From IMG/VR virus record IMGVR_UViG_2706794677_000013: a DNA stretch of 48,811 bases. One strand, 5' to 3'. This stretch comes from a virus (lineage: Duplodnaviria > Heunggongvirae > Uroviricota > Caudoviricetes). This document shows positions 1,656-44,344 of the stretch, piece after piece (position 1 is the first letter of the stretch; every line of letters starts with the position of its first letter). The position numbers were made by a program, and so were the translations under genes. The notes below the pieces were generated by a model that searched no databases, was not told the origin of the DNA, and was given only the letters and a program-made list of their open reading frames with translations.

Positions 1656-1911
1656 NNNNNNNNNNNNNNNNNNNNNNNNNNNNNNNNNNNNNNNNNNNNN
1701 NNNNNNNNNNNNNNNNNNNNNNNNNNNNNNNNNNNNNNNNNNNNNNNNNNNNNNNNNNNNNNNNNNNNNNNNNNNNNNNNNNNNNNNNNNNNNNNNNNNN
1801 NNNNNNNNNNNNNNNNNNNNNNNNNNNNNNNNNNNNNNNNNNNNNNNNNNNNNNNNNNNNNNNNNNNNNNNNNNNNNNNNNNNNNNNNNNNNNNNNNNNN
1901 NNNNNNNNNNN
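1656..1911. other. Run of 256 N (assembly gap or masked sequence) interrupting a minus-strand small ORF between xis and recT
   Basis: Literal n characters in sequence. Confidence 1.
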
Positions 1912-2795: not shown

Positions 2796-5388
2796 TTGCA
2801 TATTCCTTAGCCCAGCGGGGCAGTGATAACGTCTTAATAGCTGGCCATTCATCGGTATTGAGGCAGTCAGCCAGGGTTCGCAGATTGCGGTGATATTCCA
2901 GCTGACCTGCCAGTTTTGCTTCTTCGCCCATCATGAAAATTTCAACCGGATAACGTCCGCATTCAATAGTTGTGCTGGCAACCAGAAAAACGAAAGTTGG
3001 CTGCACTCCAAACTGTGCTTCATAACCGTCACTGTAGAATGCATCCTGAACGTGATAGCGGTAGTCGTAATAAGCGGTTTTGAATCGTTGAATATCCGCC
3101 GTAGTTTTCACGTCCATGATCCAGTGAAATTCAGGGATAATTTTGTCCGGACGGCACCGACACAAAATTGCTGTTTCAGGATCTTCCCAGTAAATTGATG
3201 ATTCAGCGTGTCCGGCGCTTTCAACAAGCCATTGCCCCAGCGGCAAAGCCATAACGCTCTGATACATGAGTTCAATTTTCCGGCCTTCTTCGGCAGTGAT
3301 AACCGTTTTTCCTGTGCTTGCGCATTCCCTCAGAAACGCTTTCTCTTCTTCTTTTCCGGAGTTTGTCCGGCGGTTAAATTCAGGTGCTACGATAAAGCGG
3401 TTACTGAATTCTTCCGGCTCAAGTACCCGGCAGTGGAAAGCGGTTCCTAAATCGAGCGTTTTTGTCTTTGTGGTGTCCACGGGGGCATTTTTACGCCACA
3501 AATACAGTGCCGGAGTATCAGCAATGTCATCGAGCTGAGACTTACTGACACCGGGACCCGCGTGGTAATTCTCATTCGAAATTCCGTAATAAATACCTGG
3601 CTCTATGTCTTCTACGATTACGGGATCTGCGACTTCGCCAGTTTCATCACTGCAATCGCGATGCGGATCGCTGCCAGCATTCTCATTGTGCGGATGTTCA
3701 GCGCCTTCCATTTCCTCCGGATCATTTTCCTTAGCTTCAACCTGACTCTCTTCATCGAATGTTTCCTGGTATGTTGCGTCGCCCATCACCGCACCACAGT
3801 CAGGGCAGTTATCCCCGCCAGTCTGGCCGCAGGCATTGCAGGCTATTTCCGGTTCCTGTTGCACTACTGGCTCAGGTTGATTCATATCCGGGCTGGTTTT
3901 TTCCGTTTCTGGCTGGTTCTGGTACACACAATCGCGAGTCTGGATCCCCTTTACCCATTTCGGATCGTTCGGGTCGCTAATTCCGTCAACAAATTCACCA
4001 CGTGATGCAGCAAGCAATTTATCGGCATCGACAGGATTTTTTGATGGAATGTTTTTCCGGGCTTCATGGAGTTCTGCCCGCAGTTCCTGATATTTCGCAT
4101 CAACAGAATTTACCTGTGACTGAGCATCCAGCGGCTGCGTGTCCTGATGATGTTCAGTTGCGTCCGGTTCCATTGTTTCAGCCTCTCCCTGTTCAACTGC
4201 CGTTGTTCCAGATGGTTGCGGTTTTTCTTCATCATCCTGTTTTCCTTCTTCTGTTACTCGCTGCGGCATCGGGGCAGAGGAGCGACCGCAGGCAATATCC
4301 ACGATTTCCGGATCAGGGTTGGCATGATCGGTTTCAGTCAGTACTTTGTTCAGATATTCAGTGACGTGCGCGGGGATGACCTCGATCCCAATTGGTGCTT
4401 CTTTTACGGACGCAACCACGATGGCGCGGGAATAATCCAGCCCGCCAGGCATGGTGATGAATTTGTCGCGGAAAACAGAAAAGGGCGGTTTATTTTCAGC
4501 GATAATTTCCTCAATGCGTTTAGCGTGTGCCGGATGAAGGTTATAGATGTCCAGATCCATTGAACGGGCCAGTACGCCAGTGGCTACGTCCCGCGCCAGT
4601 GACGTCAGATCGTGTACGAAACCTTCGCCGCGATCGGTGAGGTTTCCGCCGCCAGCATTAGCACCGGAAGCCGTGCGAGTGATGTGTGAAACACGATTAC
4701 CCTTCATCCACTCTTTTGTCAGCAGTCCTCGATCGGTGTAGTCAGCGTTCAGGTATGCTTCGAAAAAAGCAGTTATCAGTCCCAGGTTTGAATTACCAGG
4801 ATTAGGGAAAACTTTGTCAGTGTCACGAACCAGTTTGTGGAGTTCGCGAATTTCCAGCGGGTCGAGCAGGCTGGTTTTGTGGGAAACAGCCAGGGCAGTA
4901 ACAGCCGGTAGTTCTTCAGCCCGAGCAATGTGTAATGCCTGGAGTCCGTCGCGTGAAACGTGCGTTACCGGTTTTTCGCTGCCGTGTTGAGCAAGCCAAC
5001 GAATGGGCAGTTCCTGGCCAGAAATTGGGAGTAGCATATTCTCCTCAATCTCAGTCATGTCTTCGCCGTTGACGTTGGTATTGCCTTGATAGTGAGCGTT
5101 GTCTGGTGCTGCTCCCGGTTTTAGTTCCCATGTCATGGAGTCTTTGCTGAGTTGATAGCGTTCACTCCAGGTAAAATCGATCTCACCTTCAGCGGGCAGG
5201 TCATTAACGACAGGAAAATTCGTGGCAACAGCTTTAAAATAGCTGCTCAGTTTTTTACCTGACTTAACGATCAGGTAGTCCAGAGTGGCACAGGTCGATT
5301 CAAAATCGTTGCTTGCCCACAGGACGACGTCAGGTTCACCGGATGATTTTTTCGCTTTCCGTAACAGGAAGAGTGGTTTTGTGCTCAT
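2788..5388 (-). CDS. recE: RecE exonuclease VIII, 866 aa
   Basis: 866-aa ORF with acidic/Cys-rich central region and C-terminal nuclease domain, immediately upstream of recT on the same strand (recET operon arrangement). Confidence 0.88.
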
Positions 5389-10224: not shown

Positions 10225-10474
10225 NNNNNNNNNNNNNNNNNNNNNNNNNNNNNNNNNNNNNNNNNNNNNNNNNNNNNNNNNNNNNNNNNNNNNNNNNNNN
10301 NNNNNNNNNNNNNNNNNNNNNNNNNNNNNNNNNNNNNNNNNNNNNNNNNNNNNNNNNNNNNNNNNNNNNNNNNNNNNNNNNNNNNNNNNNNNNNNNNNNN
10401 NNNNNNNNNNNNNNNNNNNNNNNNNNNNNNNNNNNNNNNNNNNNNNNNNNNNNNNNNNNNNNNNNNNNNNNNNN
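10225..10474. other. Run of 250 N
   Basis: Literal n characters. Confidence 1.
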
Positions 10475-11325: not shown

Positions 11326-11575
11326 NNNNNNNNNNNNNNNNNNNNNNNNNNNNNNNNNNNNNNNNNNNNNNNNNNNNNNNNNNNNNNNNNNNNNNNNNNN
11401 NNNNNNNNNNNNNNNNNNNNNNNNNNNNNNNNNNNNNNNNNNNNNNNNNNNNNNNNNNNNNNNNNNNNNNNNNNNNNNNNNNNNNNNNNNNNNNNNNNNN
11501 NNNNNNNNNNNNNNNNNNNNNNNNNNNNNNNNNNNNNNNNNNNNNNNNNNNNNNNNNNNNNNNNNNNNNNNNNNN
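11326..11575. other. Run of 250 N
   Basis: Literal n characters. Confidence 1.
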
Positions 11576-13262: not shown

Positions 13263-13489
13263 TTTTATGGGGCACCTTTCTGATTGATTTCATATTGGCG
13301 AGGTAAGTAGAATGACTGCGGGTGCTTGAGGCTATCTGCTTCAGGCATGAACACCAAAAGGCAGATAGAGAAAAGCCCCAGTTAACATTACGCGTCCGGC
13401 AAGACGCTTAACATTAATCTGAGGCCAATTTCATGCTTTGCACATGTAGGTTAGCCTCTTACATGCCGAAAGGCAAGGAGAAGCAGGCT

Positions 13490-13645
13490 ATGAAGCAGCA
13501 AAAGGCGATGTTAATCGCCCTGATCGTCATCTGTTTAACCGTCATAGTGACGGCACTGGTAACGAGGAAAGACCTCTGTGAGGTACGAATCCGAACCGGC
13601 CAGACGGAGGTCGCTGTCTTCGTAGACTACGAATCCAGGAAGTAA
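13490..13645 (+). CDS. hok: Hok/Gef-family membrane toxin, 51 aa (HokD/RelF-like); the longer in-frame ORF from 13433 may be a mok-like leader
   Basis: MKQQKAMLIALIVICLTVIVTALVTRKDLCEVRIRTGQTEVAVF... is a textbook Hok-family sequence; structured leader with stem ctatctgc/gcagatag upstream. Confidence 0.85.
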   Translation: MKQQKAMLIALIVICLTVIVTALVTRKDLCEVRIRTGQTEVAVFVDYESRK

Positions 13646-14469: not shown

Positions 14470-14719
14470 NNNNNNNNNNNNNNNNNNNNNNNNNNNNNNN
14501 NNNNNNNNNNNNNNNNNNNNNNNNNNNNNNNNNNNNNNNNNNNNNNNNNNNNNNNNNNNNNNNNNNNNNNNNNNNNNNNNNNNNNNNNNNNNNNNNNNNN
14601 NNNNNNNNNNNNNNNNNNNNNNNNNNNNNNNNNNNNNNNNNNNNNNNNNNNNNNNNNNNNNNNNNNNNNNNNNNNNNNNNNNNNNNNNNNNNNNNNNNNN
14701 NNNNNNNNNNNNNNNNNNN
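14470..14719. other. Run of 250 N
   Basis: Literal n characters. Confidence 1.
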
Positions 14720-21624: not shown

Positions 21625-22560
21625 CGTCAGGAAAGCAGGGGAGAATGCTGCTAGTTGGGCAACTGGTCTTTCTGCTCCAAATTATAACAGAGACCAGTTA
21701 TAGTTTCGGTGCTGTGTTTTTTTTACAATATTGTGATAACACATTGCTGGCGGGAGTTTTGATATTTCTTGGCAGGGGCTGATGATGCGTTATCCTGATG
21801 TCGTCAACTCATATAAAATGAGATGAGAGATCATTGCAGGGTGGTTTGTAATTCGCTGTTTAGCGGGACAATATGTTGTCTGATACAAGACACCCGACGC
21901 CTCAGATTACTATAATAAAGACGAAGCATCCTTTGTATTGACCAACCGCCTGTTTAGGCGGTTCTTTTTGGGCTGGTTTATTGTATGCCAAATGATTATT
22001 AAAAAGGTTGTGTTAATAACAAGATCCGAAATAATATGCCTGCATATTTTTATCTTGCTTATATTCTGCATATTGTGCATAGCAGGCTCATCCCTGCAAT
22101 CAAAACTGTATGATGAGTATTTTTTGTTTTCCTTTTTTCCAGTCATCTGATGATGACCTGCTTCTTTTTAATCCGGATCGACATCAGTTTTTTAAGATAA
22201 TTCCTGCGAGTTATATGCATAAATGCCACAAACTCCGCATTTTATGTGGTTGGGAGTTGCCGGGCGCGCAGTGAGTTTGCTAAGAAAACTCCTGCATGGT
22301 GAATCCCCCTGTGCGGTGGGGTGATACCATTAACCTTTTCTGTCGCCGACAGGTATCACGAACATTTTGTTCACCGGGAGGCACCCGGCACCATGCACTT
22401 CAATAGATTCTCTCCACATTATGGATATTCTTTCAGAATATCCCACGCAGACTTTGTGTAAATGTTAACAAATGTGCGTTTTATTTGATCTGATTCGCTG
22501 TTTGAGCGTCCAAAACAACGGTATATATAATCCTTTACTATATGACATATGTGAGGAAAA

Positions 22561-24932: not shown

Positions 24933-25199
24933 NNNNNNNNNNNNNNNNNNNNNNNNNNNNNNNNNNNNNNNNNNNNNNNNNNNNNNNNNNNNNNNNNNNN
25001 NNNNNNNNNNNNNNNNNNNNNNNNNNNNNNNNNNNNNNNNNNNNNNNNNNNNNNNNNNNNNNNNNNNNNNNNNNNNNNNNNNNNNNNNNNNNNNNNNNNN
25101 NNNNNNNNNNNNNNNNNNNNNNNNNNNNNNNNNNNNNNNNNNNNNNNNNNNNNNNNNNNNNNNNNNNNNNNNNNNNNNNNNNNNNNNNNNNNNNNNNNN
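24933..25199. other. Run of 267 N covering the Rz 3' end and the trkG 5' end
   Basis: Literal n characters. Confidence 1.
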
Positions 25200-37387: not shown

Positions 37388-38350
37388 GTGAGTTCAGGTG
37401 CAAAGGTTATCTCGGCATTTATCCGGGAGACGGTTGCAGGCACTACGCCAGCAAGTGGTGACTGGAGTTTATTAAAACGCACAAGCTGGGGAGTAAAACC
37501 CACCCAGAATAAAGGCGAAAATAATGAGATTGGTGGCTCCCGGATGGCTCAGGGGGCGACGCCTGGCACTGTGGATGTCGGCGGTGATGTTGGTACCAAA
37601 TTTCGCTGGGGTCAACATGATGATTTTCTTGCATCCTGTTTCGGCGCGGAATGGTCAGGCGATTCTCTGACAATGGGGAATGAGCGAATAACATTTTCTC
37701 TGGCGACCTATGCGTCCGATGTCGGAATTGCCTCTGTCGTCAGAGGAGCGCAGGTTGGCTCATGGAAAATGCAGATCCCTAACGACGGCGATATTACAGC
37801 GACCGTAACCTTTGCCGGACTGGACTGGGAATCAAAGGCCGATGATACGAATTTTATCAAAGGCGAACCTGTGGATAGTGCAGGAAAGCTACGTTATTCG
37901 TTTAAGGAGGTTTCAGCAGTAAGCCTGAATGGTGTTGCCGGAGGTAACGGTTTTTGTATCGACAGTTTTGATATTCAGTTCGATAACAAACTCCAGACAC
38001 AGCGTTGTATCGGGACTGGCTCGCCTTATGCAGGAGCAAATATTCCGACTACTTTTACACCGTCCGGTACGGTGACGCTTTCATGGTCTAAAGCCGCGTG
38101 GGAAATCTGGAGTAAAACACTGACTGGAGAAACAGTTCCGTTCAGCTTCACGCTTTCGAATGGAGAGGGGGCATACACTTTCAGTTTCCCGAAGGTTCAG
38201 GTGTCAGGTGAATGGCCTGATGGGGGTAATAGCGACATTATCCAGGTTCAATTGAGCATTACCGCAGCAGATGAAGCACCTACGATAACCAGAAAAAAAA
38301 ATTCCCCGGCTGCCGTGATCGCAAAAGCCAGTGCTGAGGCGATTAGTTGA
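37388..38350 (+). CDS. Major tail (tube) protein, 320 aa, likely GTG start
   Basis: GTG at 37388 preceded by taggagg; position upstream of the chaperone and tape-measure genes. Confidence 0.65.
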   Translation: MSSGAKVISAFIRETVAGTTPASGDWSLLKRTSWGVKPTQNKGENNEIGGSRMAQGATPGTVDVGGDVGTKFRWGQHDDFLASCFGAEWSGDSLTMGNERITFSLATYASDVGIASVVRGAQVGSWKMQIPNDGDITATVTFAGLDWESKADDTNFIKGEPVDSAGKLRYSFKEVSAVSLNGVAGGNGFCIDSFDIQFDNKLQTQRCIGTGSPYAGANIPTTFTPSGTVTLSWSKAAWEIWSKTLTGETVPFSFTLSNGEGAYTFSFPKVQVSGEWPDGGNSDIIQVQLSITAADEAPTITRKKNSPAAVIAKASAEAIS

Positions 38351-38398: not shown

Positions 38399-38860
38399 AT
38401 GAGGTTATGGATGTTTATTCTTAATCAGAAAATTATCATTGGTGGAGAACGCTGGTTTACGCCAATGAAGGACTTAAAACCTGTAGACGGGTTAAAACTG
38501 TTGGTGGCAAGCAGCGATAACGATCAGTATCGCTCCCGTAATGCATTAATCCGTCGCCACATTGAGAAAATGGATGCCAGTTTGCACGTCGGAACGAAGG
38601 AGTTTGATATTTCAAAGGTTTCCGAGGTGGATTCTGTTGATGATTTACTCATTGATAATGCCGCTCGTTATCTGCTGAAAGACTGGAAAGGGGTTGGTGA
38701 ACTGGTTAATGGTGTTGAGGTTGCACTGGAATATACGGCAGAACGAGGGATCGCGCTGCTTAAGCAGAATCCAGAGTTGTACTGGCAGATCCTTGCAGAA
38801 GCAGCCAGCATCGCCCAGGGTAAAGAGCAGCAGAAGCAGGATACGATAAAAAAGCCATAG
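38399..38860 (+). CDS. Tail assembly chaperone (lambda G-like)
   Basis: Position directly upstream of the tape measure; ends just after a slippery A AAA AAG site. Confidence 0.7.
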   Translation: MRLWMFILNQKIIIGGERWFTPMKDLKPVDGLKLLVASSDNDQYRSRNALIRRHIEKMDASLHVGTKEFDISKVSEVDSVDDLLIDNAARYLLKDWKGVGELVNGVEVALEYTAERGIALLKQNPELYWQILAEAASIAQGKEQQKQDTIKKP

Positions 38861-39168
38861 CTGCCCAGCGGTGGTTATCGGAGTTCGGGGGAGAAAGGGG
38901 GGAAAAGGCAAGATGGAAGCGAGAAAAACTCAGGTTGCCACCGATACCGGAACCAGAAATAGACCCGGTGCTTAAGGAGTTGTTGTACGCCTATTCGGTA
39001 ATATCCCGTGCCCGACGTTATGCTGGAATGGCTGGGGTGCCTTTGCCTTTATCTCTGACAGAGATAAATGAATATTTAGCCACTCATCCGGTATTGATTG
39101 AGCGCGATGAATTTGAAGCAGTGATCTTTGCACTGGATGACCAGTATTTTCAGGAGCAGTGTGTGTAG
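38399..39168 (+). CDS. Tail assembly chaperone frameshift product (lambda GT-like) made by -1 frameshifting at A AAA AAG (38848..38854)
   Basis: The -1 frame is open from the slip site through to 39168 and continues the 38935..39168 ORF; frame arithmetic checked by hand. Confidence 0.6.
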
Positions 39169-39289
39169 TTGTTAATTACGTACACTCTGTTACAGAGATG
39201 TGATGGTGTCTTTAATTAAATCGATGATGCTCCTGGAGAAAAGCATTGCGTGGCCTCGTAATCGCTATATCTACTATTATGTCGCCTGA

Positions 39290-39316
39290 AACCCACTTCG
39301 CGGTGGGTTTTTTGTT
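39290..39316 (+). terminator. Hairpin (aacccac ttcgcg gtgggtt) plus T-run just upstream of the tape measure gene
   Basis: 7-bp stem followed by tttttgttg; may act as an attenuator. Confidence 0.4.
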
Positions 39317-39333
39317 GTCAGGAGTTTTAATAA

Positions 39334-42300
39334 ATGGCAGAGCAAACCTCGCGTCTCGCAATAATTATTGATAGCACTGGAGCGAAAAATAATGCTGACA
39401 ATCTGACCTCCTCATTAGTCAAAATGACGCAGGCTGGGGAAACTGCTGCAAATAGCGCAGGGAAAGTGACTAAGGCAACAGAAGATGAGAAGAACGCGCT
39501 CGCAAAATTAAAAGCAGCTATTGATCCAGTTGGTGCCGCAATTGATACTGTCGGTCGACGCTATTCTGAATTAAAGAAATTTTTCGATAAAGGGCTTATT
39601 GATAAAGAAGAATATGAATTTCTTGTCCGTAAACTTAATGAAACCACAGAGGAATTGAGCGGGGTTGCGCAAGCGCAGAGAGAAGCCGAGAAGGCCGGAA
39701 AACTTGCTGCCGCCCAGCAGGAAGCGCAGGCTCAGGCCTTTCAAAGAATGCTGGACAAGATCGACCCTCTGGCTGCGGCGCTAAGAAATCTTGAACAACA
39801 GCATGATGAACTTAATGCTGCGTTTGCATCCGGGAAAATAAATGGTTCTCAGTTTGAGAATTATAGCCGAAAAATACAGGAAACACGGCGAGAGCTTACC
39901 GGAGAGGCTCAGGCAGAGCGAGAAGCAGCAAAAGCGCATGATGAACAGGTTGTTGCTTTGCAACGTCTGATTGCTCAACTTGATCCTGTCGGAACTGCTT
40001 TTAATCGTCTGGTAGAACAACAGAAACAGCTCAATGAAGCAAAAGCTAAGGGGATGCTTTCTCCTGAAATGTATGAGGAGCTTTCTGGAAAACTTCGTGC
40101 TATGCGGAGTGAGCTTGAGGTTACTCAATCACAATTAAGCAAAACCGGAATGTCGGCAAAACAAACGGCTTTTGCTATGCGCATGTTGCCTGTACAAATG
40201 ACGGATATTGTTGTTGGGTTGTCCACTGGTCAGTCGCCATTTATGGTGTTAATGCAGCAGGGCGGCCAGCTAAAAGATATGTTCGGTGGGATTGGCCCGG
40301 CGATCAAAGGTGTAGGTTCTTATGTGCTGGGATTAATTAATCCTTTTACCCTGGCCGCAGCAGCCGTTGGGGTCTTAGGACTGGCTTACTATAAAGGCTC
40401 TCAGGAGCAGGACGAATTTAATAAATCTCTTATTCTTACCGGAAATCAGTTGGGGACAACCAGCGGGCAATTGGGCGATATAGCTCAACGTGCCGGGAAT
40501 GCGGCTGATTCGACAACTGGTGCTGCGGCGGCAGTATTAAATCAGCTTGTGCGTTCGGGAAAGGTAGCGAGCAGTTCGCTGGAGCAAGTGACGACAGCGA
40601 TAGTAAAAACGAGCGAAGTAACAGGAATATCAACCGAACAACTGGTTAATGACTTCAATGAAATTGCAAAGGATCCTGTCAGTGCCATATCAAAACTTAA
40701 TGATCAGTACCATTTTCTGACACTTGCGACTTATAACCAGATTAAGGCGCTACAGGATGAAGGGAACCAGCAGGAGGCCGCCCGCATTGCGACAGAAGAA
40801 TACTCATCCTCAATGATCCAGCGCACCAACCAGATTAAAGAAAATCTTGGTTATCTTGAGACTGCATGGAAAGCTGTCGCAGACTCCGCAAAATGGGCAT
40901 GGGATTCCATGCTGGATATTGGCCGTGAGGCCTCCCTTGATCAAAAAATCTCAGATGTTCTCCGTCAAATTGATGAAATAGAAAAAAATACCCGACCCGG
41001 AGTTTTCGGGTTAGGTGGCATTGGAGATGGCGGAGCTCAAAATAAAAGGCTGGCACGATTAAAGCAGCAATTGGGCGTACTTCAAGCAGAAAAAATTGCT
41101 CAGGACGTACTAAATTCATCAATAAACGATTACAACAAGCGACAACAGGAAGGAATTGAACTCAGACAGAGAGCAGATGCCTTTTCAAAACAATATCAGA
41201 CCCGGGAGCAGCAGAGAGCTAGTGAACTTGCAAAACTGGAAAAGCTAAAGAATCAGTATTCAAAGGAAGAATATAATAATCTTATCGCTCAAATAAATGA
41301 GCGTTATAAAGATCCAAAGCAACCAAAGGCGAAAGGTTATTCTGATGATGCAGCCCAACGAATGATTGATCATCTGAATCAACAGAATGCGTTACTAAGT
41401 TCACAAGCTGAGTTGACCGTTAAATTAAGTTCCTCTGAACAGGAACTGGTTAAGTGGCGTCAGCGGATTGCCGACCTAGAGTCACGACCATCATCGAAAT
41501 TAACCCAGGATCAGAAATCGCTTCTCTTACACCGGGAAGAAATAACCACGTTGATGGAGAAAAATGTTGCGATTGAAAAAAATAACAGGCTAATCAAGGA
41601 ATCCGCCGAAATAACAGCATGGCGTGATTCATTGCAGGCTTCGATTGATAATCGTCAGCAGGGGTATGATATTCAGATTGCTGGTTATGGGGTTGGCGAT
41701 AAAAATCAGCAACGCCAGCAGGAATTACTGCGGATTGAACATGGATATAACAATCAGCGTCTGCAACTTGAACGTGACTATGCAGATAAATCCCGTGGAA
41801 TGTCAGATCATGTTTTTCAAGAGAAAATGCAGGCTCTGAATGATGCTCTGGAACGGGAAAAAGAAATTGTCAGACAGAAAAACGAGCAGCTCGATATTCA
41901 GGCAGGAGACTGGGTTAGTGGTGCCTCCCAGGGATTCAATAACTGGCTGGATGACACTAAGGATATCAGTGAGCAGATAAAATCAACCACGACTCAGATG
42001 TTTGATGGGATGACCGATGCGCTGGGTGATTTTGTCACGACAGGCAAGGCAAATTTTCGTTCTTTCGCTACTTCCGTGATTTCGGATCTTAGTCGAATAG
42101 CATTAAAGGCTTCAATTACTGGGATTTTCGACAGCATTAGTAACAGTTCTTCTGGGGGGATTTTAGGAACTATCGGGAGTGCTATTAGTAAATTTATTCC
42201 GAATGCAAAGGGCGGTGTTTATGAGTCTCCGTCATTGAGCACGTATTCGAACGGTATTTATGATTCCCCGCAATTTTTTGCTTTTGCAAAAGGGGCTGGT

Positions 42301-42567
42301 GTTTTTGGTGAGGCTGGACCGGAAGCCATTATGCCATTAACACGAACTTCCGATGGTTCTCTTGGTGTCAGAGCTATTAATAGTAAAAGTGGTAATGGAG
42401 GCGGAGATATTACCTATGCCCCTGTATACCAAATCACTATTCAAAATGACGGCCAGAATGGAGAGATTGGCCCTCAGGCAATAAAAGCACTTATGGGGAT
42501 GGTTGATCAGCGGGTGCAGGGCAATCTGTTAAATATGCGACGTGATGGGGGAATGTTAAGTGGCTAA
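39334..42567 (+). CDS. Tail tape measure protein, 1077 aa
   Basis: Very long, coiled-coil-rich N-terminal half, Gly-rich C-terminal part; position. Confidence 0.85.
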
Positions 42568-43601: not shown

Positions 43602-44344
43602 ATGACACAGACAGAATCAGCGATTCTGGCGCACGCCCGGCGATGTGCGCCAGCGGAGTCGTGCGGCTTCGTGGTGAGAACACCGGAGGGGGAAAGATAT
43701 TTTCCCTGCGTGAATATTTCCGGTGAGCCGGAGGAGTATTTCCGGATGGCTCCGGAGGACTGGCTGCAGGCAGAGATGCAGGGTGAGATTGTGGCGCTGG
43801 TCCACAGCCACCCCGGTGGTCTGCCCTGGCTGAGTGAGGCCGACCGGCGGCTGCAGGTGCAGAGTGATTTGTCGTGGTGGCTGGTCTGCCGCGGGGCGAT
43901 TCACAAGTTCCGCTGTGTGCCGCATCTCACCGGGCGGCGCTTTGAGCACGGGGTGACGGNNNNNNNNNNNNNNNNNNNNNNNNNNNNNNNCTGGCGGGAA
44001 TTGAGATGCCAGATTTTCATCGTGAGGACGACTGGTGGCGTAATGGTCAGAATCTCTATCTGGATAATCTGGAGGCTACAGGGCTGTATCAGGTGCCGTT
44101 GTCAACGGCGCAGCCGGGCGATGTGCTGCTGTGCTGTTTTGGTTCATCGGTGCCGAATCATGCCGCCATTTACTGTGGTGACGGCGAGCTGCTGCACCAT
44201 ATTCCTGAACAACTGAGCAAACGAGAGAGGTATACCGACAAATGGCAGCGACGCACACACTCCCTCTGGCGTCACCGGGCATGGCACGCATCTGCCTTTA
44301 CGGGGATTTGCAGCGATTTGGCCGCCGCATCGACCTTCGTGTGA
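43602..44344 (+). CDS. Tail assembly protein, lambda K-like (JAB/MPN + NlpC/P60), interrupted by a 31-N run; exact end uncertain
   Basis: HSHPGG JAB-type motif in the first half; C-terminal half with a Cys/His catalytic-like region; frame changes across the N run. Confidence 0.7.
43960..43990. other. Run of 31 N inside the K-like gene
   Basis: Literal n characters. Confidence 1.

Follow-up and report, generated by a model that had tools for sequence, protein, structure and literature searches.

The site described here lies between the tail tube gene and the tape measure gene of a tailed phage, in a stretch of 48,811 nucleotides that is called the window below. The gene order is tube, G, T, tape measure, M, L and a K-like gene, with homologues of the lambda minor tail proteins M and L encoded after the tape measure protein (Table 1). 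G denotes the ORF read in the zero frame and T the extension that is open behind it in the -1 frame; the ORF listed separately at 38935..39168 is the 3' part of T. In identical E. coli DNA, the gene upstream of G is labeled "phage tail tube protein" by PGAP. A second ATG, at 38399, lies upstream of the one given for G in Table 1. As G homologues align from Met 38411, and some of them have an in-frame stop in the equivalent of 38399-38410, these alignments suggest that G probably starts at ATG 38411 and that ATG 38399 is not used. The predicted fusion protein GT would then combine 38411-38854 (148 aa) with 38854-39165 (104 aa) to give 252 aa and 28.7 kDa. Further downstream, a terminator-like hairpin followed by a T-run is seen directly 5' of the tape measure ribosome-binding site in most of the lineages whose gap sequence was read.

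Table 1. Features of the chaperone locus, with positions counted from the first nucleotide of the window
Feature	Coordinates	Strand	Basis and remarks
Tail tube (major tail) protein gene	37388..38350	+	PF18906 Phage_tube_2, E 9.4e-32; phrog_290; directly 5' of the chaperone gene
G, tail assembly chaperone ORF, zero frame	38411..38860	+	149 aa, 16.9 kDa; phrog_313, E 4e-46
Stretch open in both the zero and -1 frames	38824..38857	+	34 nt; bounded by TAA 38821-38823 and the stop at 38858
Slippery heptamer A_AAA_AAG	38848..38854	+	X_XXY_YYZ phase; P-site AAA, A-site AAG; read from sequence
T, -1-frame extension	38854..39168	+	104 codons and stop TAG 39166-39168; would be read after the shift only
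Tape measure protein gene	39334..42567	+	Pfam TMP_2, E 3.9e-81; Tape_meas_lam_C, E 3.9e-26; phrog_24

The geometry of the two frames is read directly from the DNA. In the frame of the chaperone ORF, positions 38840-38860 are GAT ACG ATA AAA AAG CCA TAG, and the heptamer thus spans the codons ATA AAA AAG in the phase of a canonical slippery site. A single codon, CCA, separates it from the zero-frame stop TAG at 38858-38860, and the ORF with its stop included ends 6 nt past the heptamer. The -1 frame has its nearest 5' stop at TAA 38821-38823 and is open from there, through the heptamer, to the TAG at which T ends; no stop occurs at 38824-39165, and the frame is that of the ORF listed at 38935..39168. 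The initial annotation had described the place and phase of the heptamer, the distance to the end of the ORF and the open -1 frame in the same way, and on each of these it was correct. It gave the feature as 38840-39168, of which the right end coincides with the stop of the -1 frame and the left coordinate has no biological meaning.

As both frames are open only at 38824-38857, a productive -1 shift is confined to this overlap, and within its 34 nt no canonical slippery heptamer was found besides A_AAA_AAG. The motif as such is not rare: AAAAAAG occurs 14 times on the + strand and 24 times on both strands of the 48.8-kb window (shuffles, 15.3 +/- 4.0). By rough arithmetic, the chance of finding it in phase within the overlap, where there are some 10 in-phase positions, is about 0.003. 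A chance origin of the heptamer is made untenable by its conservation among relatives.

Loci for this comparison were taken from species-representative genomes, viral contigs and named phages and amounted to about 110 distinct ones from Escherichia, Citrobacter, Klebsiella, Raoultella, Serratia, Pantoea and others. At the homologous position, all 110 distinct loci carry one of three heptamers: A_AAA_AAG (101), G_GGA_AAG (8) or G_GGG_AAG (1). The E. coli/Citrobacter group together with other Enterobacterales contributes 45 distinct loci, of which 42 have A_AAA_AAG, two (Raoultella and Serratia) have G_GGA_AAG and one (Pectobacterium, L015) has G_GGG_AAG; the remaining 65 distinct loci belong to a Klebsiella-type clade and divide into 59 with A_AAA_AAG and 6 with G_GGA_AAG. 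A Pantoea locus (L017) outside the 45-locus tally has G_GGA_AAG too. The stop codon of G is found at +3, +21, +75 or +105 nt from the heptamer; in every case the -1 frame runs on into T. The length of T is 104 aa in the window and mostly 104-116 aa in other loci, with shorter forms in a few; among the 45 loci of the first set, T measures 104-114 aa except in three where it is shorter. The exchange of A_AAA_AAG for G_GGA_AAG alters the zero-frame residue from K to G, which suggests that slipperiness, and not the protein, is what selection has kept.

More distant relatives retain an AAG Lys codon preceded by A at the same place, with the -1 frame running into a recognizable T. Erwinia phage Gungnir39 has C_GCA_AAG followed by TAA, with no gap between the site and the stop codon; in Pseudomonas syringae phages, which are 27% identical, the homologous place reads G_GAA_AAG. 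The noncanonical heptamers (G_GGG_AAG, C_GCA_AAG-TAA and G_GAA_AAG) suggest either that the rules for such a site are looser than the canonical model or that some copies are impaired. A scan of viral contigs with one distant homologue (P0119) as the query returned zero relatives.

An independent view of the same site is given by the coding frame under selection, which we followed as mean pairwise divergence by codon position in a gap-free alignment of 15 diverse lineages. From -90 to -1 relative to the heptamer, divergence peaks at the third position of the zero frame (0.51 vs 0.20 and 0.12). From +7 to +87 the peak lies at the third position of the -1 frame (0.49 vs 0.23 and 0.19), and it stays there from +88 to +174 (0.57 vs 0.23 and 0.14). 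The third-position peak therefore changes phase, and the coding frame under purifying selection steps back one base at the heptamer.

The beginning of T is also where a reading of G and T as two separate genes can be judged. In the output of ORF callers and of PGAP, 38935..39168 or a shorter frame appears as a separate "hypothetical protein," and T might accordingly be supposed to be translated from a start of its own, TTG 38935 or GTG 38968, with the heptamer incidental. However, T is kept from residue 1 across 17 lineages as A[IL]EAQxWLxEFGGExGEKAxWxREKLxLPPxPEPEID, and the 27 codons that precede TTG 38935 are conserved as -1-frame protein, with the third-position divergence of that frame. 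Initiation at 38935 could not reach these codons, which would be reached only by a shift from G. The candidate starts are themselves poorly kept: among the 15 lineages, 7 lack ATG, GTG and TTG altogether in the first 40 codons of T, and only 4 have TTG 38935. In the bases before 38935 (gaaaaactcagg), an AGG abuts the start, and there is no spaced Shine-Dalgarno sequence. Gene callers, moreover, place the start of T differently from genome to genome, reporting relatives of 60 to 138 aa with varying N termini and 27-97% query coverage. We therefore consider it highly improbable that T is a gene in its own right.

A different way of joining the two frames would act on the transcript. The heptamer contains six consecutive A residues, and RNA polymerase might drop one A of this run to produce a subpopulation of mRNA in which G and T are in frame; homopolymer runs are known to be able to cause such slippage (PMC1088944). 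Selection against slippage-prone runs is evident in many bacteria at about nine A or T (PMC1088944), as compared with the six A residues found here. In addition, the relatives with G_GGA_AAG, G_GAA_AAG or C_GCA_AAG have no run longer than four and yet show the same two-frame arrangement. Transcriptional slippage cannot apply to those with G_GGA_AAG, and as the explanation for the locus it has only a very slim chance. It could also be argued that nothing is programmed here, the heptamer being a chance occurrence in a tolerated error site or in a decaying or indel-broken gene, with a frameshift product that has no function. Many E. coli genes do hold A_AAA_AAG without known purpose, the element is a prophage that is defective in K-12, and some database entries (P0001 and P0002) are single-ORF fusions. 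Decay would nevertheless be hard to reconcile with a split arrangement and a heptamer at the same codon in 1074 of 5426 E. coli genomes and in about 110 distinct sequences from several genera, with a heptamer that alternates between two canonical forms, or with purifying selection on T in the -1 frame. On these grounds, a functionless site is hardly credible.

The reading that we favor is a programmed -1 ribosomal frameshift by which two tail assembly chaperones, G and GT, would be made from one mRNA, and we put its probability at roughly 0.9. A programmed shift joining G to T had been proposed in the initial annotation, and as far as comparison of sequences can support it, it is supported by the position and phase of the heptamer, its conservation, the switch of coding frame and the lack of a start belonging to T. 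Most ribosomes would stay in the zero frame through G and terminate at TAG 38858, releasing the 149-aa G protein. In a small fraction, with AAA (38849-51) in the P site and AAG (38852-54) in the A site, both tRNA-Lys would slip back by one base. Translation by these ribosomes would continue from GCC (38854), with the TAG no longer in frame, and the 104 residues added would bring the product to the 252 aa of GT. By analogy with lambda, the G part, common to both proteins, may form a coat on the tape measure protein, and the rarer GT may bring in the tube protein through its T part and so start polymerization of the tail tube; neither G nor GT would be expected to end up in the virion.

The initial annotation had also suggested looking for a downstream stimulatory structure. 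Segments of 113, 46 and 66 nt of the window and of 60 nt of four relatives were folded, and RNAalifold was run on 15 lineages; in none of these (window, relatives or 15-lineage consensus) was there a structure that is conserved or stabler than shuffles. The 113 nt 3' of the heptamer fold no better than shuffled sequences (z = 0.16). The sole local hairpin found in the window follows the heptamer with a spacer of 0, has z = 0.20 against shuffles and is unconserved, and the RNAalifold consensus amounts to -3.3 kcal/mol and six scattered pairs. No stem-loop or pseudoknot of the dnaX type was found 5-9 nt past the heptamer. Upstream, an SD-like AGGA is present at 38838-38841, 6 nt 5' of the heptamer, but its spacing differs from that of the dnaX-type element, which lies about 10 nt before the heptamer, and it is unconserved, being missing in three lineages (L014, L015 and L016).

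The heptamer thus appears to act alone. A bare heptamer with no stimulators would be consistent with shifting at a low rate, a few per cent, and with G being far more abundant than GT. The summary of Gurvich 2003 given in PMC10861913 puts -1 frameshifting at A_AAA_AAG in E. coli genes, each in its own context, at more than 1%, and lambda needs a G:GT ratio of about 30:1 (PMC5009743). When these two figures are combined, the bare heptamer would give about the right ratio of G to GT.

The assignment of G and T as chaperones draws on protein families and on predicted folds. The match of G to phrog_313, annotated "tail assembly chaperone," covers profile positions 13-149 of 258, and T matches the same profile at positions 173-246 (E 0.0097) in addition to phrog_1189 (E 1.4e-36). 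G and T therefore align to successive, nonoverlapping parts of one 258-position chaperone profile. In the Pfam scan (E <= 0.01), G has no family; relatives of G carry the precomputed Pfam tag PF27119. The only Pfam match of T in the window is PF23812 Phage_TAC_18 at 20.7 bits, under the cutoff of 27; of 16 relatives of T, 7 match it, with a best E of 9.4e-6. NCBIfam yielded no family for G, T or four head and tail genes that lie upstream. The locus can be placed beside the chaperones of other siphophages represented by PHROG 313 and PF23812, to which G is related through a strong match to phrog_313 and T through a weak match to the C-terminal part of that profile.

Profile searches of PDB sequences with G and T gave nothing at E <= 1. 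AlphaFold models were obtained with pLDDT 76 for G and 79 for T, and the best Foldseek match of the G model in the PDB has an E of 0.29, which is meaningless. Against BFVD, the G model gives weak matches to annotated phage tail or tape measure chaperones (best E 1e-3, TM 0.4-0.54). The long annotated chaperones of phages CcrColossus (268 aa), Loki (262 aa), Sansa (310 aa) and Seurat (268 aa) are weakly matched by both models, by that of G in the N-terminal part and by that of T in the C-terminal part. As neither sequence similarity to lambda gpG nor a relative of solved structure was detected for G, the proposed role in tail assembly rests on gene position, the PHROG annotation and these weak fold matches.

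The closest known system is the G/GT pair of tail assembly chaperones of lambda (Levin, Hendrix & Casjens 1993; Xu, Hendrix & Duda 2004, 2013, 2014; PMC5009743). When the locus is set against the definition of Xu et al. 2004, we find two ORFs between the tube and tape measure genes, the second of which lies in the -1 frame and overlaps the 3' end of the first, and a canonical heptamer in phase within the overlap. Both the site and the two-frame arrangement are kept in diverged relatives, and T is under coding selection from the shift site onward with no initiation signal of its own. [quoted passage not shown] To our knowledge, the lambda frameshift requires no RNA structure. The heptamer of lambda itself, G_GGA_AAG, stands at the same codon in some relatives, whereas the window has A_AAA_AAG, and the products would measure 149 and 252 aa here, compared with 140 and 279 aa in lambda.

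The description "lambda-like" in the initial annotation therefore holds for the arrangement and the presumed role and does not extend to the sequence family: neither G nor T matches the Pfam families of lambda gpG and gpT (Phage_TAC_2 and Phage_tail_T), which makes the locus analogous to lambda G/T and not a member of that family. A similar distinction applies to the comparison with dnaX of E. coli, which encodes tau and gamma. The heptamer A_AAA_AAG is indeed the same, as the initial annotation stated, and the translation apparatus of the host is shared, but the wider likeness fails, since no dnaX-type stimulators were found. In dnaX, shifting reaches about 50% with the help of an SD-like element, 10 nt upstream of the heptamer, and of a strong stem-loop on the 3' side. 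The single tRNA-Lys of E. coli pairs better with AAA than with AAG. The outcome differs as well: the -1 frame of dnaX stops almost immediately and gives a shorter protein, while the -1 frame here adds 104 residues. In mechanism, the G/GT frameshift is of the textbook kind already known, and the locus is an ordinary example of it.

Two further ideas go beyond the textbook mechanism, and we regard both as unlikely. One is that slippage in some members of the family involves a single tRNA or is assisted by the stop codon. The A-site Lys slip, A_AAG, may be the sole element that is strictly kept, while the P-site codon drifts among AAA, GGA, GCA and GAA; the Pectobacterium locus, with G_GGG_AAG, does not keep A_AAG and speaks against such a reading. 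The other concerns the hairpin before the tape measure gene as an attenuator. Together with the frameshift, the hairpin and T-run could set the stoichiometry of chaperone to tape measure protein, or they could be the leftover border of inserted accessory genes.

When the site is placed in its genomic context, it is found to belong to a Rac-type prophage of E. coli. Over 991 bases around the site, the DNA matches Salmonella phage SPF_0923 at 100% identity and nine induced E. coli prophages at 98%; among 5426 complete E. coli genomes, 1074 carry this 991-base locus. The Rac prophage of E. coli K-12 is 100% identical over query positions 160-991, a range that covers the heptamer, T and the first part of the tape measure gene. 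In K-12, this DNA comprises the 3' part of the truncated ydaY (b1366), then an unannotated stretch and then the beginning of the truncated tape measure gene, ynaA/tmpR. G of the window is the intact form of K-12 Rac YdaY and receives the name "protein YdaY" from PGAP. Whereas the tail module of the window is intact, the G gene of K-12 Rac has lost its 5' end (119 aa) and its tape measure gene is truncated, from which it follows that the K-12 module cannot function.

Existing annotation reflects little of this arrangement. None of the five annotated records of the locus that we inspected carries a frameshift mark, G goes under "protein YdaY" or "hypothetical protein," T is either absent from annotated records or called from differing starts, and the product names among the listed database matches are "YdaY," "hypothetical protein" or "putative tail assembly chaperone" only. 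Two single-ORF fusions were considered as unsplit forms of the gene and rejected. One (P0001) results from a deletion that jumps into the -1 frame 5' of the heptamer, and the other (P0002) runs through the +1 frame and has homopolymer-type errors in a read assembly. A search of full-text literature for ydaY or Rac linked to frameshifting found nothing relevant. Gurvich and colleagues reportedly named ydaY in 2003 as a candidate for utilized A_AAA_AAG frameshifting.

No recoding event of tailed phages is better known than the G/GT frameshift, of which the locus presented here is a clean example with a canonical heptamer. Its practical value lies in annotation, as the gene pair is very common in E. 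coli prophages and is missed by public annotations. If a family rule joined the two frames at the heptamer and named the products tail assembly chaperone G and GT, thousands of records would be corrected and YdaY would gain a functional name. In addition, the heptamer variants that occur in the family at one fixed codon form a natural series, with which slippery sequences could be compared within a single context.

Three kinds of relative carry a non-canonical heptamer where the window has A_AAA_AAG: a Pectobacterium prophage, the Erwinia phage Gungnir39, and two Pseudomonas syringae phages (loci L015, L099, and L101/L102). In every one of them, the conserved -1-frame extension (T) of the tail assembly chaperone (G) is intact. 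These sites may either be impaired or work through single-tRNA or stop-assisted slippage.

The same region persists in the defective Rac prophage of E. coli K-12 MG1655 (L003), where positions 3993-4832 are the counterpart of window 38509-39340, with 100% identity across the heptamer, the entire T frame, the small ORF and hairpin that follow it, and the tape measure start. The 5' end of G (ydaY) has been lost there, ynaA is truncated, and the T frame has no annotation in MG1655. Natural rearrangement variants are also found among database proteins related to window 38411-39168 (P0001, P0041, P0014, and P0019). In P0001 (240 aa, NCBI, E. coli), a deletion joins G with T at a point 5' of the heptamer, and in the other variants the C-terminal part of G is joined to ParB-like (YnaK-type) or other N termini, fusions that resemble the deletion junction of the K-12 Rac prophage.

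Two candidate in-frame ATG codons for G lie within window 38399-38413. Alignments with homologues begin at the second (38411), and in several relatives a stop codon separates it from the first, so the 153-aa version in the ORF list is probably four codons too long. Elsewhere in the window, Rfam profiles match a sok antitoxin RNA, which belongs to a hok/sok-type toxin-antitoxin locus, and an sRNA STnc100. Seven runs of N account for 1,305 bases in total, and the last falls inside the K-like tail gene (start 43602), whose ORF translation shows X residues and then a frame change because this run interrupts it.

Coordinates of features in the window and of homologous shift sites in relatives
Feature	Location	Strand	Details
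sok antitoxin RNA	window 13320-13495	+	Rfam, 117 bits, above gathering score
sRNA STnc100	window 22264-22450	+	Rfam, 86.6 bits, above gathering score
N runs	window 1656-1911, 10225-10474, 11326-11575, 14470-14719, 24445, 24933-25199, 43960-43990
T-tape measure gap	window 39169-39333		165 nt
Small ORF	window 39200/39203..39289		28/29 codons, MMVSLIKSMMLLEKSIAWPRNRYIYYYVA; 5' of terminator-like hairpin
Terminator-like hairpin and T-run	window 39288-39311	+	10 pairs
G_GGG_AAG	L015 2920-2926		Pectobacterium prophage
C_GCA_AAG	L099 2286-2292		Erwinia phage Gungnir39; stop TAA immediately 3'
G_GAA_AAG	L101/L102 2187-2193		Pseudomonas syringae phages

Of the seven lineages in which the gap after T was read, most have a GC-rich hairpin and then a T-run immediately upstream of the tape measure ribosome-binding site; besides the window, this observation draws on the stretch just 5' of the tape measure start in the related loci L014, L017 (Pantoea), L018, L078, L088, and L099. 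As an alternative reading, this hairpin could possibly be an attenuator. The length of the gap ranges across relatives from 29 nt to 1.8 kb, and in a Klebsiella phage it holds additional ORFs, one of them a "membrane protein." The gap looks like an insertion hot spot for accessory genes.
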